Of a stretch of DNA of 64,000 nt, positions 50,473 to 61,775 are shown in pieces. The DNA is from a virus (Duplodnaviria; Caudoviricetes): positions 1 through 64,000 of the IMG/VR virus record IMGVR_UViG_3300028571_002036. The stretch is one strand, 5' to 3'. Position 1 is the stretch's first letter. Each line of letters begins with the position of its first letter. Under the pieces are notes generated by a model. The model had not been told where the DNA came from. It saw only the letters and a list, made by a program, of their open reading frames with translations, and searched no databases. The translations under genes were made by a program, and so were the position numbers.

Positions 50473-51076
50473 GGGGGTGAACGGTATTGATTGGCAGGGT
50501 TAATCATACGGGGCATGCAGTGAGATGTTTCCTATCACTTTAATCTATGGGAGTGCTTTTTAAGTGGCAACACTTTTGAAAAGCTTCAGGCTGTAGGTCT
50601 TCTTACAACTGAAGCGGTTACTGTAGCTTAGGCTATAATAACCGTGGGTCGATGGGGACATATACCTTGAAACAGAAGTCCTTATGGTGTGGTTTCTACC
50701 TTAAAAGAAATGGAGGTAATGTTTGGTGTTCTACCGATTTGAGTGAACACTCCACAGTTTCTGATGACGATGGCAAAATAGGAATCAGATATTTCGGAGG
50801 GTTAAACAAACCCTGACCTAAGCATGTAGTCCTTTATGGGTAAACTGAGCAAGACGTGGGTTAAAAATCGAGCCCCTTCATATCGTGAGATATGTCGAAA
50901 ATCGGATGAATTCAGGGGAAGTCTTTCGGGATTATCCTGAGCCAAGCCTGGTAGGAATAGGAAGGTGCAGAGACTAGTGGGTGGTAGACGCTTCTACCGT
51001 AATACCACATTAGCGTCCGACATCTTGAAAAAGATGATGATATAGTCCACTTGTGTCGAATCCCACCACCTCCACC
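50473..51076 (+). ncRNA. ssrA: tmRNA (intron-containing)
   Basis: Acceptor GGGGGTG/CACCTCC with G3.U70 and A73; spliced T-arm GTGGG-TTCGAAT-CCCAC; helix-2 GCATG/CATGT; tag ORF 50566-50631 (GNTFEKLQAVGLLTTEAVTVA*). Confidence 0.93.
50862..51055 (+). mobile_element. Group I intron (194 nt, no ORF) in the tmRNA T-loop
   Basis: P1 GGGU|U...AGCCC with U.G at the splice site; P/Q GAATTCAGGGGAA / ATCCTGAGCCAAG; R GCAGAGACTA; S GATATAGTCC; P3 CGGATG/CGTCCG; terminal G. Confidence 0.92.
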
Positions 51077-52756: not shown

Positions 52757-52832
52757 GCCGAAGTAGCTCAGTGGTAGAGCAGCTTTCGTAAAAGATGGTG
52801 TGACGCGATAGGTTCGATTCCTGCCTTCGGCT
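52757..52832 (+). pseudogene. tRNA-Thr-like gene with aberrant anticodon arm
   Basis: GCCGAAG/CTTCGGC acceptor, intact D arm and TTCGATT loop; the anticodon region (TCGTAA) cannot form a 5-bp stem with a 7-nt loop. Confidence 0.55.
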
Positions 52833-52862
52833 CTTAATTACTCAATAAACTATTTATTGATT

Positions 52863-53707: not shown

Positions 53708-53994
53708 TGTTCCCAATCTGAAAATTTCAAACCCCACATCAAACCAATCATAGCCATTTCCCTTTCCGCAAGGTGTTTGTTGATTCTAAGATTTTTTCTT
53801 ATAAATTCAGTACCCCACAACTGCCATTCATCATTTTGAGCTTTGGTCATTTCCCATTCCTGATACCAAGAATCTTTTCTGTCTTTAATATCCTCGTAAG
53901 AAATATTATGACCTGCAATATAAAACATTTTGTTGATTAGTTCTTCAACAACTTTCTGATTTTTTTCCTGTTTTGATAATCGCTTCTTTGTCAT
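53704..53994 (-). CDS. Hypothetical protein
   Basis: 96-aa ORF with coupled overlaps. Confidence 0.6.
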   Translation of the reverse strand: MTKKRLSKQEKNQKVVEELINKMFYIAGHNISYEDIKDRKDSWYQEWEMTKAQNDEWQLWGTEFIRKNLRINKHLAEREMAMIGLMWGLKFSDWEQ

Positions 53995-54584
53995 TACATT
54001 AAAAATTTTATAATTTTATCCTTTATACCTGATTGCTTTATACCTTCCCAAGACCTTGGTGTTTGAACAAAATTACTTAAGCCTGGTTTGTTATCTGAAC
54101 CATCTCTGTCAGAAAATTGAGCACCCAAAAAATCTATAGACATATCCAAATCATCAACCGCAACCCAATGAGTAATCTCAGGATGAGATTCCAACCAATG
54201 TTGAATTTCCATGAATCTCTCTAATTCCAAATCAGCCCTGAATCTTAGTTTAGCCCATTCAGATGGAAATAAATCTTTAAACATTCCTGTGGTATCTATT
54301 GGTCTTTTAATAACACCCTGTGATAAGTAATAATCTCCAAGTTCCTCGAGTGTTGCGTGAAACCTCCAATCTGAACTCACCACATATTCTGCGCCTGTTT
54401 TCTCAAGAATTTTGTTGAAAACCTTAATCGCTTTTGGGTCGAAGTTATCAAATCGAACATATACAGGTAAGTCATTTGCTGATGTACCCATAGTTCTACC
54501 CTCTTTGATTTGTTTCTTCCTACGAGAACCCCAGTTCTCTGCCAAGCAGATTACACCATCATTATCTAAGAATATTACTTTCAT
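53994..54584 (-). CDS. HAD-domain protein of RNA-repair type (HAD_SAK_2-like)
   Basis: 'KVIFLDNDGVI', 'VVSSDWR', 'EIQHWL...WVAVDD'. Confidence 0.8.
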   Translation of the reverse strand: MKVIFLDNDGVICLAENWGSRRKKQIKEGRTMGTSANDLPVYVRFDNFDPKAIKVFNKILEKTGAEYVVSSDWRFHATLEELGDYYLSQGVIKRPIDTTGMFKDLFPSEWAKLRFRADLELERFMEIQHWLESHPEITHWVAVDDLDMSIDFLGAQFSDRDGSDNKPGLSNFVQTPRSWEGIKQSGIKDKIIKFLM

Positions 54585-54743
54585 CTTGAATTGATTTGTA
54601 GTGAGATTCATAATATGTGAGTGGCATCAAATGTCCCTTTTCACCTGATATTGCTTCTTTGAGTGTTGAATAATGAAACACTTGGTCATTGGAAACAACA
54701 ACCCAATTTTTTTGGTTTGCTAAGTTTGGTCTAGTTAAATACA
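54562..54743 (-). CDS. Small hypothetical protein
   Basis: ORF MYLTRPNLANQKNW... downstream of TATCTTTG (54752-54759). Confidence 0.45.
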
Positions 54744-58368: not shown

Positions 58369-58614
58369 ATCCCATCCTCAGGATTTACAGTCACAGTACA
58401 AGAAATTGGGTCTGATGTTGTTTGGTCGGGTTCCGGTAATTTGAACCTGACTAACTTAACATTTCAAAATAGCAGCACATTGACCGCAGGATTTTCAGCT
58501 ACTCAAGCAATTTGGGCTGCAGGTCCGAGGTTTTCAAAATATATTTTGCCATGTTTTTTTTTTCTTAAAATTAGTTAATTAAAAATTTAAAGTCAAATAG
58601 CGGAAAAACTTTAG

Positions 58615-58688
58615 GGTGAATAATGGGAATCGAACCCACGACGCTCGGAACCACAAACCGATGCTCTACCAACTGAGCTATATCCACC
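58615..58688 (-). tRNA. tRNA-His(GUG)
   Basis: G-1, GTGGATA/TATTCAC, C73, loop TTGTGGT. Confidence 0.92.
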
Positions 58689-58810: not shown

Positions 58811-59353
58811 TTAATTTTTACCCACGACTTCAGCAACAACAAATCGTTCACCCGATAACACAGGTGTCACTTCATGAAATAGACTTCCATCAAAAAGAAT
58901 CGCCATTCCTTTTTCTTTAGGTACAACTTTATTATTAACAATTAATTCGCCACCCTCAAAGTCATCATTTAACATCAATATCACAAGCCATCTTGTATCG
59001 GATGAGGGAATGAAATCAATGTGTCTAGTATGTTTACCACCTAAAGGATAATGAGTAAAATAATGTGGGAATTCCAAAATAAAATTTGTAAGAATACATC
59101 CAAAACATTTTAAAAAAATATCCGATAGAAAAGGTAAATCATTTTTTTGTATCCCAACAATATCAACAACTCTATTTGGAGCATTTATTCTTGTAATAGA
59201 TTTTGAAGTAGTGTCCCACACATTTTTATCAATATCAATAAAAGAATTAAAACTATTCCAAAAGTTTATAACACTTTTAATTTCGTCATTAGAAATCACA
59301 TTTCGGATTATTTTAAAATCACCATAGTCTTCTATATTTTTACAAATATCCAT
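58811..59353 (-). CDS. 2OG-Fe(II) oxygenase (P4H-like)
   Basis: 'HID', 'LNDDFEGGEL', 'HEVTPV.SGER'. Confidence 0.88.
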   Translation of the reverse strand: MDICKNIEDYGDFKIIRNVISNDEIKSVINFWNSFNSFIDIDKNVWDTTSKSITRINAPNRVVDIVGIQKNDLPFLSDIFLKCFGCILTNFILEFPHYFTHYPLGGKHTRHIDFIPSSDTRWLVILMLNDDFEGGELIVNNKVVPKEKGMAILFDGSLFHEVTPVLSGERFVVAEVVGKN

Positions 59354-59561: not shown

Positions 59562-59659
59562 TGGTGTGAGCGGGATTCGAACCACGCGGCACGGTCTTTT
59601 TCACGGACTTGCTCTACCATGGGAGTATCATATGAGTACTCCACCTGAGCTATCACACC
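59562..59659 (-). tRNA. tRNA-Phe(GAA)-like with hairpin insertion in the D-loop
   Basis: GGTGTGA/TCACACC with A73; loop GTGAAAA; D-loop carries GGAGTA-CTCATATGA-TACTCC. Confidence 0.6.
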
Positions 59660-59666
59660 ATTTTTG

Positions 59667-59747
59667 TACCGGAAGAGGGACTCGAACCCCCACGCTAAAA
59701 AGCAGATGCTCCTAAGGCATCCGTGTCTACCATTCCACCACACCGGC
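59667..59747 (-). tRNA. tRNA-Leu(UAG)
   Basis: GTGGAATGGTAGACAC D arm, GATGC-CTTAGGA-GCATC, variable arm, A73. Confidence 0.9.
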
Positions 59748-60484: not shown

Positions 60485-60561
60485 TGGTGGGCCTGGCAGG
60501 AATCGAACCCGCGACCTCGAAATTATGAGTTTCTCGCTCTAACCGTCTGAGCTACAGGCCC
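60485..60561 (-). tRNA. tRNA with CAU anticodon (probably Ile2)
   Basis: GGGCCTG/CAGGCCC-A-CCA, loop CTCATAA; no initiator features. Confidence 0.85.
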
Positions 60562-60722
60562 TGATGTTTTGTCAATTATAGAAAATCAATTTCATATTGT
60601 CAAATCGTTTACCTTGAAAGAGTTGAATTTCCGACATTTTTTATCTGAGTTAAAAGTGTTTAGTAAACTTTTTTTTGTTACAATAAACCTCATTAGTTTA
60701 TTGAGCAATTTTTAGTTTATTG

Positions 60723-60794
60723 TGACCCCGAGGCGATTCGAACGCCCGACTAGTATGTTAAGACACACTGCTCTACCATCTGAGCTACGGGGTC
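60723..60794 (-). tRNA. tRNA-Lys(CUU)-like with a 6-nt anticodon loop
   Basis: GACCCCG/CGGGGTC with A73, perfect D and T arms, GTGTG-TCTTAA-CATAC. Confidence 0.6.
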
Positions 60795-60871: not shown

Positions 60872-61114
60872 AAAAATTTAACAAAGTATAACCAAGATTC
60901 TGTATTTAATCTATCATTAGTCTATTTGCCCCCACCTTACCCGACCAGCTCACCGTCGTGGGTTGTTTTGGGTTGCATCCTCGGTGGTAATGACGATATA
61001 AGGATGTGGACTTATAACTGACCATTATAAGTTTGTTCCCTTATATCTCCCACCTTAAGCGTGTGATGTCCTGAGTTTCCTCTCCTAAGAGCGACAGAAC
61101 TTTGTTAAATTTTT
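60872..61114 (-). ncRNA. rnpB: Minimal RNase P RNA
   Basis: GAGGAAACTCAGGA...ACAGAATCTTGGTTATA (P4 with bulged U); P1, P2 TCTGTCG/TGATAGA, P3, P5 CATC/GATG, P6 GCTTA/TGAGC, P7 GGTGG/CCACC, P15-17 with GGU; AGACTAATGA (CR IV). Confidence 0.88.
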
Positions 61115-61184
61115 TTTTTCAGGTTTAGGTTCAGGTTCTTCGGGTTTCGGTGGAACATTCCACATTTCATCCCAAAAGGTATAT

Positions 61185-61775
61185 TCACTCATTGTTGTCA
61201 GGTTTAGAAAATGTTTCTTCGGCTTTACCGCCAAATTTACTGTTGTTAAACAAATCATCATAGTCTTTGAATCCCCTTGTACGGGCATAATCATCGTTTT
61301 TCTTTCTACGATACTCCTTGATTTTTTCAGGGTCGCTCATCTCATCAGGGGTTTCAAAACCAAGTGATTTGGCACACTCGTTTTCACACCACTTATGAGA
61401 ACCGATTTCAATGTGAATTGGTAAATCGGTCTGTAGTGAATCAATGAACTCTTCGAATTGGTTTGCGGCAATGAACGGCATCGTGTAGATACCCTCATCA
61501 ACAGCATATCCTGATTCGTCCTGACTGTCAAAGATTTCAACCCTTCCCATACGGTATTTTTCACCCATCAAAGAGAATACTCCATAACCAACGGTTGAAT
61601 AATAAAACCTACCAGGGTCACTAACACCATGAATATCAATACACCCTGGATTTTTTTCTATCCAAGTTCCAAGATGATTGGCAATGTCCGTATTGGTGAG
61701 TTTAATATTATCCTTCTCAGCATCGTGACGGATATTTGTTAAAAACCAAGCAAGTTTCTTTCTATCTATTTTCAT
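61185..61775 (-). CDS. Hypothetical protein
   Basis: 196-aa ORF with TATATTTG at 61781-61788. Confidence 0.65.
   Translation of the reverse strand: MKIDRKKLAWFLTNIRHDAEKDNIKLTNTDIANHLGTWIEKNPGCIDIHGVSDPGRFYYSTVGYGVFSLMGEKYRMGRVEIFDSQDESGYAVDEGIYTMPFIAANQFEEFIDSLQTDLPIHIEIGSHKWCENECAKSLGFETPDEMSDPEKIKEYRRKKNDDYARTRGFKDYDDLFNNSKFGGKAEETFSKPDNNE

Follow-up and report, generated by a model that had tools for sequence, protein, structure and literature searches.

Introduction

The RNA component of RNase P is regarded as a housekeeping ribozyme of the cell. What such an RNA would be doing in the genome of a virus is the question raised by a short segment of IMG/VR virus record IMGVR_UViG_3300028571_002036 (Duplodnaviria; Caudoviricetes), in which the minus strand of positions 60872-61114 can be folded into an RNase P catalytic core ahead of a series of tRNA genes. 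The stretch analyzed here, referred to as the window, is the first 64 kb (64,000 nt) of this 84.6-kb record, whose CheckV completeness of 23% implies a phage genome of several hundred kilobases.

A first-pass annotation, made from the letters of the window, had proposed that the segment encodes an RNase P RNA that lacks the specificity domain. This proposal is borne out by covariance-model alignments, by a family of 23 distinct viral sequences (the window included) and one fragment of a metagenome-assembled genome (MAG), by covariation in all helices of the core, and by adjacency to tRNA genes. The 243-nt RNA is a real, conserved, and reduced RNase P RNA, and to judge from its sequence it is probably functional. 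To the overall reading, in which the segment specifies a bacterial-type RNase P RNA pared down to the catalytic domain and a specificity-domain stub, one of a family found in huge phages that are uncultivated, we assign a probability of roughly 70%.

Architecture of the RNA

Scripted pairing placed every element of the hand-paired catalytic core (P1–P6, P15–P17, the GGU, and the conserved regions) where the first-pass annotation had put it. Together with the letters and the Rfam alignments, it delimits an RNA that runs from P1 to P1 over 60872-61114, with all parts on the minus strand. The outermost helix, P1, is formed by 16 perfect pairs between 61099-61114 and 60872-60887. It is followed by P2, in which UCUGUCG (61092-61098) makes seven pairs, including two G-U, with UGAUAGA (60910-60916), and by the P3 hairpin CUC-UUAG-GAG (61082-61091; three pairs), which is short in the window and long in relatives. 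Conserved region I (CR-I), in joining region J3/4, and the 5′ strand of P4 with its bulged U (GAGGAAAC-U-CAGGA) occupy 61069-61082 and align to the GAGGAAAgUCC consensus; CR-I of the window reads GAGGAAACUC. P4 itself, AAC-[U]-CAGGA/UCUUGGUU, is a long-range helix that crosses P2 and comprises eight pairs with the bulged U preserved, the compensated variant described at the outset. P5 pairs CAUC (61065-61068) with GAUG (60976-60979) over four pairs, and the P6 pseudoknot joins GCUUA (61056-61060) by five pairs to UGAGC (60948-60952) in the loop of P17.

The 3′ half is equally complete in its catalytic elements. Positions 60931-60975 hold J5/15 (CAA), P15 (CCC/GGG, three pairs), J15/16, P16/P17 (ACCC..GAC/GUC..GGGU, four plus three pairs), and the loop L15, which reads AAGGU and includes the GGU at 60934-60936. 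CR-IV (UAGACUAAUGA) lies at 60914-60924, and CR-V (ACAGAA) together with the 3′ strand of P4 (UCUUGGUU) at 60890-60903, both located by Rfam alignment and pattern match and the latter segment by covariation as well. Only six nucleotides (GCAAAU) separate the 3′ strand of P15 from CR-IV (UAGA), so P18 is absent, as had been claimed.

What remains of the specificity domain lies at 60983-61054 and consists of P7 (GGUGG/CCACC, five pairs by scripted pairing) around GA, a 53-nt hairpin (60995-61047; RNA positions 68-120), and GUCAUUA. The hairpin is the sole one between the strands of P7 and replaces P8–P14, in agreement with the single hairpin first described beyond P7. P10–P12 with CR-II and CR-III are not found: between the strands of P5 there is P7 with this one hairpin, and the Rfam alignment skips the region. 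The reduced size noted at the outset stands, with the figure of ~230 nt corrected to 243 nt once the full P1 is counted. A protein-coding origin of the region was ruled out, the open reading frames (ORFs) inside it being only 31-39 aa long.

Recognition by covariance models

Among Rfam models, RNaseP_bact_a scores best at the locus (35.7 bits, E 4.4e-11), aligning its positions 1-367 to 60873-61109 on the minus strand. RNaseP_arch aligns positions 1-288 to 60877-61109 on the same strand at 34.1 bits (E 4.1e-8; permissive settings, 601 bases), and RNaseP_bact_b has no match there. Both alignments match the same blocks, namely, CR-I, J5/15, L15, CR-IV, and CR-V. In CR-I, GAGGAAACUCA aligns to the consensus of the J3/4-P4 motif (GAGGAAAGUCC-like), and the 3′ strand of P2 is flanked by UAGACUAAUGA, which corresponds to the AGNNNAAU motif of CR-IV, and by the ACAGAA of CR-V.

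The fold is also unusual for its composition, with a minimum free energy (MFE) z-score of -4.3 and none of 200 shuffled sequences folding equally stably; a pattern spanning CR-IV to CR-V occurs once in the window and in none of 100 shuffles. A chance resemblance or a generic hairpin-rich region is ruled out by the Rfam alignments, the MFE shuffles, and the covariation described below.

A family on viral contigs

Scanning IMG/VR viral contigs with the CR-IV to CR-V pattern returned 92 stretches, which fall into three sets by the spacing between GAGGAAA and CR-IV: ordinary full-size RNAs, in which it is about 230-280 nt, a short class with a spacing of 111-199 nt, and chance matches. A short form was defined by a spacing of 111-199 nt from CR-I (GAGGAAA) to CR-IV, or by a match to R1, a covariance model of the 3′ part of the RNA with 104 positions. 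R1 recognizes 25 sources at 49-109 bits, 18 of them its own training rows and the others outside the training set (loci L097, L044, L023, L087, L091, L088, and L160). As the RNA of L088 is identical to that of L069, the family amounts to 23 distinct sequences on viral contigs, the window and 22 others, plus L160. Members recovered without requiring the CR-I motif carry GAGGA-C-AAACUC or UAGGAAACUC. A pattern for RNAs without P18 matches 22 of 114 loci, comprising short forms (some at duplicate loci), a full-size RNA at a single locus (L083), and two loci cut out of the record to which the window belongs.

In cellular genomes the same no-P18 pattern is not specific: it occurs in at least 119 stretches, of which 80 were retrieved, and among these R1 is strong for L160 only, three ordinary RNase P RNAs reaching 31-34 bits through CR-IV and CR-V alone. 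The L160 contig, 530 bp long and of low coverage, was assigned to the bin of an Algoriphagus MAG; its content (the end of a gene for a 196-aa protein that also precedes the RNA in the window, the mini RNase P RNA, then tRNA-Lys) is plainly that of the L097 phage region, and it is probably a mis-binned phage fragment. Two of the three weakly matched cellular RNAs are from Bacteroidota, a hint of a Bacteroidota host on too thin a basis. A blastn search with the RNA against GenBank phages gave no match.

Covariation across the family

Compensatory change indicates that these RNAs are maintained. The pairs of the window were mapped onto A1, a MAFFT alignment of 18 short forms that was not fitted to structure. 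In A1, 80.0% of 1041 cells are paired, against 63.2% after shuffling (none of 500 shuffles attaining the observed 80.0%) and 34.5-42.3% when one side is slid by 1-3 columns, figures to be read in light of rows that are related and were chosen by conserved motifs, the variable paired positions having been free in the search. The covariation score is 0.369, compared with 0.068-0.109 in the slid controls.

Among the individual helices, P2 is paired in 99.2% of cells with four of its seven pairs changed on both sides (the three fixed inner pairs were imposed by the search pattern), P4 in 95.8% with six of eight so changed (the two fixed pairs likewise imposed), P5 in 94.4% with all four, and the P6 pseudoknot in 89.9% with three of five. 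The covariation expected of these four helices by the first-pass annotation is thus present in each. P7 (92.2%; 5/5) and the base of the stub hairpin (87.0%; 3/4) follow the same course, and RNAalifold applied to ten stub regions predicts P7 unaided, four of its five pairs being compensated. P15 (42.6%) and P1 (50.9%) are poor in A1 because of misalignment. In the sub-alignment A2, RNAalifold predicts P15, P16, and P17 de novo, with 96.3%, 88.9%, and 92.6% pairing, respectively, and double-sided changes in 9/9 pairs. P1 is present in 18/18 aligned members with unrelated sequences; duplexes formed by a member's own flanks average -11.9 kcal/mol, as against -4.3 (standard deviation 2.3) for mismatched flanks, only 1% of which reach the median of the true pairs.

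Invariant positions in A1 include the U bulged out of P4, the J5/15 A, and the initial G of GGU in L15, together with G36, A38, A39, and U41 within CR-I. The GGU of L15 found in the window is seen by eye in the aligned members too. These data show that the core (P1–P5, P6, P7, P15–P17, CR-I, CR-IV, CR-V, the bulged U, the J5/15 adenosines, and the GGU) is under selection across phages without common flanks.

Size variation and the stub

Family members differ considerably in length, from 165 to 253 nt between P2 and P4 (209 nt in the window), and the changes are limited to three peripheral sites, namely, P3, the stub hairpin, and P16/P17. The piece from P7 to P7 measures 28-33 nt in 11/18 members and up to 112 nt, with 72 nt in the window. 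P3 extends to about 60 nt in L087 and L160. In L097 it is split by a ~620-nt insert (about 860-1490 of that locus) with an ORF for an HNH-type endonuclease, and the flanks of the insert still pair (GUUCAAC/GUUGAAC); L160 and L087 share this elongated P3 but have no HNH ORF in it. A group I intron within this insert is unsupported, as the Rfam intron matches fall elsewhere in the L097 locus. In L160, P16/P17 bears an extra 49-nt hairpin.

Around P7, the stub carries a conserved motif, GGAGA on its 5′ side and UCG-YU-NNN-AC on its 3′ side (alignments A1 and A3). This motif may form a small tertiary module; that it provides a T-loop-like contact for the tRNA elbow is speculation.

Genomic context

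In the window, the first tRNA gene downstream (60722-60794, minus) begins 77 nt past the end of the RNA, and four more follow on the same strand (60485-60561, 59666-59747, 59562-59659, and 58614-58687), so that the RNA stands ahead of tRNA genes as originally described. An ARAGORN scan over the 23 member loci finds at least one tRNA gene in 19. In 13/23 the R1 match is followed on the same strand by a tRNA no more than 300 nt downstream, and in 8/23 by one no more than 20 nt away, just past P1; L097 has six tRNAs within 2 kb after the RNA. The mini RNase P RNA gene thus usually forms part of a tRNA gene array or stands at its head.

Outside the close relatives of the window, no protein family is common to the member flanks (blastp E 1e-5, within 5 kb), which leaves the RNA itself as the conserved element. 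By the same search, a linked cofactor gene common to the member flanks was sought and rejected. Among the close kin, a syntenic slot can be defined. The 196-aa gene upstream of the RNA (61185-61775, minus), which is without a Pfam family, marks an order of gene, RNA, and tRNA, and in L097, L087, and L160 the RNA sits exactly between a gene of this type and tRNA-Lys. The upstream protein led to 18 related loci, in two of which (L093 and L097, on contigs shared with the pattern loci L042 and L011) blastn located the RNA; tblastn with the 196-aa protein gave no match.

Several further features of the neighborhood can be recorded. A 35-aa ORF (MSEYTFWDEMW...; 61085-61192, minus) begins at the stop codon of the upstream gene and extends 30 nt into P1–P3; its L087 homologue stops about 600 nt ahead of the RNA, which suggests that a deletion created the overlap seen in the window. 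The first downstream tRNA (60722-60794, minus) has by eye a 6-nt anticodon loop (UCUUAA), for which ARAGORN reports the anticodon 'ctta', and relatives have tRNA-Lys(UUU) in the slot. A second tRNA-like gene (52757-52833, plus) has its anticodon called as 'aa'. A perfect sigma-70 consensus (TTGACA, 17 nt, TATAAT) at 60575-60603 (minus) immediately precedes tRNA-Met, in the gap that separates the first two downstream tRNAs. Elsewhere, the window contains a group I intron (50852-51068, plus; 75.1 bits against a gathering threshold of 50), a protein (53994-54611, minus) with a match at E 7e-20 to PF18143, the HAD domain known from 'Swiss Army Knife' RNA repair proteins, and a 2-oxoglutarate (2OG)-Fe(II) oxygenase gene at 58811-59353.

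Evidence against a functional bacterial-type RNA

A number of observations weigh against the reading given above. The Rfam scores lie far under gathering (34.1 vs 84 for RF00373, 35.7 vs 100 for RF00010), and at those thresholds the window yields nothing but tRNAs and a group I intron, which is why standard annotation overlooks the RNA. A search of the record with RF00373 gave no match at E<=1, in conflict with the 34.1-bit alignment, a discrepancy ascribed to the search filter. RNaseP-T (RF02357) has no match at E<=10 and no candidates in the record, so that among the models proposed at the outset the bacterial and archaeal ones align end to end below gathering and the type T model finds nothing. 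Moreover, the search pattern required CR-IV and CR-V, so that their invariance among the homologues counts for nothing, and in most rows the conservation of GAGGAAA likewise stems in part from how the search was built.

The setting is likewise imperfect. In 10/23 member loci there is no same-strand tRNA within 2 kb downstream. No sigma-70-like promoter is found directly upstream of the RNA, the nearest (61531-61503) falling inside the upstream gene. Searches for the protein cofactor RnpA (PF00825) in six RNA-bearing records, that of the window among them, gave no match, each record being a fragment 19-38% complete. CCA is encoded by only 39 of 177 tRNA genes across 15 member loci, and by one of seven in the window, though L15 keeps its GGU; nor is a CCA-adding enzyme (PF01743) found in the window's record. 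A conserved GGU sits oddly beside tRNA genes that mostly lack CCA, a mismatch that would disappear if CCA addition preceded 5′ cleavage.

The RNA is also dispensable at its own slot. Sixteen of the 18 loci found through the neighboring gene have no R1 match. Of five such loci scanned for tRNAs, four have a tRNA 9-95 nt after the neighboring gene (tRNA-Lys in three), too close for the RNA to fit between them; L100, the fifth, has its nearest same-strand tRNA about 1 kb off. A 317-kb relative that is 100% complete has no RF00010 match, and its sole R1 match scores 23.7 bits in coding-like sequence. The absence of the RNA from the same slot in close relatives marks it as accessory.

Full-size RNase P RNAs on viral contigs

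The mini RNA is not the only RNase P RNA recovered from viral contigs. Ten further pattern loci score above the RNaseP_bact_a gathering threshold of 100, at 118-316 bits and 207-390 nt, on contigs of about 20-456 kb. Nine of them (L020, L025, L052, L056, L065, L071, L072, L081, and L083; 118-263 bits) stand amid dense tRNA arrays, often with a tmRNA near; L032 is the exception, with few tRNAs around it, and may represent host flank. Eight are full-size RNAs scoring 167-263 bits, at L020 7064-7438, L052 6764-7116, L025 4462-4786, L072 9809-10122, L071 4044-4368, L081 3463-3786, L065 3890-4207, and L083 1630-1970. Their neighboring tRNA genes are often 10-100 nt away on both sides, and a tmRNA is near in L071, L072, and L083. 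The remaining locus, L056 (10596-10802), located after a tRNA array on a viral contig of 190 kb, encodes a reduced, GC-richer RNA of 207 nt that scores 118.5 bits on RNaseP_bact_a; R1 does not match it, so it looks like a separate reduction. Phage-borne RNase P RNAs thus range from full size to the form seen in the window.

With two of the full-size phage-contig RNAs as blastn queries, the matches were limited to a Salmonella contig that bears the annotation 'RNA component of RNase P' and a pair of 'Acinetobacter phage MD-2021a' contigs without annotation. We found no paper that describes full-size RNase P RNAs in viral tRNA arrays.

Comparison with known RNase P RNAs

The nearest counterpart is the bacterial type A RNA (RF00010; E. 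coli M1 RNA), with which the mini RNA shares the order of P1–P5, a P2 of seven pairs, a P4 with a bulged U, a P6 pseudoknot that reaches the P16/17 loop, P15 and the GGU of L15, and CR-I, CR-IV, and CR-V. It differs in lacking P8–P14 (including CR-II and CR-III) and P18 at a length of 243 nt, and in being phage-borne, non-essential to the phage, and adjacent to tRNA genes. The full-size RNaseP_bact_a genes of viral contigs share its tRNA setting, but all except L056 retain the specificity domain, and standard annotation detects them.

In overall plan, the mini RNA recalls the naturally occurring type T RNase P RNA of archaea, whose catalytic domain is intact, whose specificity domain is all but gone, and which is reported to be active (PMC3579882, PMC7191817). 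Natural RNase P RNAs devoid of this domain have been reported from one archaeal family only (PMC7191817). Type T RNAs, however, are GC-rich, work with archaeal proteins, and have a P2 of 3 bp and a shortened P15 (PMC3579882). Membership in type T is ruled out by the seven-pair P2 of the mini RNA and by the lack of an RF02357 match, and the resemblance is best read as convergent reduction, an analogy rather than kinship. An engineered bacterial catalytic domain (C-domain) alone cleaves pre-tRNA at lower efficiency (PMC5839562). Such C-domain RNAs are laboratory deletions, whereas the phage family is natural and keeps P7 and a small conserved stub.

Other viral RNAs offer looser parallels. Theta ribozymes, which resemble that of hepatitis delta virus (HDV) and lie by phage tRNA genes, have been proposed to lessen the dependence of tRNA maturation on host RNases (PMC10879173); they are small and self-cleaving, act at tRNA 3′ trailers, and have a fold unrelated to that of the mini RNA. 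Camelpox virus carries an RNA resembling RNase P RNA that has been discussed as a possible decoy (PMC3001073), but this is a eukaryotic virus and its RNA, unlike the mini RNA, has no tRNA-array context. Our search of open-access and bioRxiv main texts turned up no account of an RNase P RNA encoded by a phage, and an earlier mention is possible. The term is absent from the main text of a survey of huge phages (PMC7162821), whose supplements may list RNAs; a megaphage paper relates that Rfam detected only tRNAs and tmRNA (PMC8172020); and papers on RNase P gene finders leave phages unmentioned.

Proposed function and alternatives

As a bacterial-type RNase P RNA, the mini RNA would be transcribed together with the tRNA array and would cut the 5′ leaders of phage pre-tRNAs at the universal active site formed by P4, J3/4, and J5/15. 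In bacterial RNase P, RnpA binds the catalytic domain and the leader. The host's RnpA would most likely assist cleavage here, a suggestion prompted by the failure to find PF00825 in the six fragmentary records. Where a tRNA starts 14-20 nt after the R1 match, just past the 3′ strand of P1, the same cut would also make the 3′ end of the ribozyme, and closeness to its substrates could offset the missing elbow-binding domain. A relaxed specificity suited to aberrant tRNAs, as suggested by the first-pass annotation, may be a further consequence. The benefit to the phage would be extra or host-independent capacity for tRNA maturation in infection. Activity is plausible given that the catalytic domain alone cleaves pre-tRNA (PMC5839562) and that type T works without most of the specificity domain.

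A bolder version of this proposal may be tentatively entertained, though we think it doubtful. The RNA would be a self-contained ribozyme of about 190-250 nt for tRNA 5′ maturation, forming the first unit of the array, releasing itself at the next tRNA, and processing the rest without an elbow-reading domain and perhaps without protein. If true, it would be the smallest natural bacterial-type RNase P, and would allow phages to go on translating if the RNase P or the tRNAs of the host were attacked or shut down.

Other roles have to be set against an enzymatic one. Since no cofactor gene is found in the six records, any protein partner would be the host's, and the RNA might then be a non-catalytic mimic that soaks up host RnpA or competes with host RNase P, shifting the maturation of tRNAs or other processing in the phage's favor; its accessory presence in close kin is what a modulator might show, and a decoy role has been discussed for the camelpox virus RNA (PMC3001073). 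A decoy, however, has no need of the full active-site set, yet the bulged U, the J3/4 and J5/15 adenosines, ACAGAA, and the GGU are kept across divergent members, and a same-strand position directly 5′ of tRNA genes suits an enzyme beside its substrates more than it does a sponge. We consider such mimicry unlikely. The short distance to the next tRNA, within 20 nt of the end of the R1 match in 8/23 loci, raises instead the idea of a cis-only module for processing or folding the array transcript, one that makes a single leader cut or serves as a structured 5′ cap and does not turn over multiple substrates. Tethering can offset substrate binding weakened by loss of the specificity domain, and cis-cleaving constructs of RNase P RNA and pre-tRNA are an established tool (PMC3378863). 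The gap of 77 nt in the window, the 10/23 loci with no same-strand tRNA in the 2 kb downstream, and the closed P1 helix in 18/18 members, which suggests a discrete, released RNA, make a purely cis-acting role quite unlikely.

Least credible is a decaying, functionless relic of a full-size RNase P RNA gene of host or phage. Full-size RNaseP_bact_a genes in viral tRNA arrays do make such a reduction plausible, and close relatives without the RNA would be in keeping with decay. But a relic would lose pairing and conserved loops, whereas here compensatory changes preserve every core helix in 18 divergent copies and size changes are confined to P3, the stub hairpin, and P16/P17; this origin is highly improbable. 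The reading of a reduced bacterial-type RNase P RNA, acting on the phage's own pre-tRNAs, is the one we prefer.

Implications

The genes described here have a practical bearing on annotation, as standard Rfam thresholds miss RNAs such as the one in the window. With about 165-210 nt from P2 to P4 and three tolerated sites of insertion, the family would offer compact RNase P scaffolds for structural and synthetic work. It would also constitute a natural experiment on the minimal RNA for pre-tRNA recognition. For the phages themselves, a family of this kind would add a ribozyme to the translation-related functions carried by huge phages.

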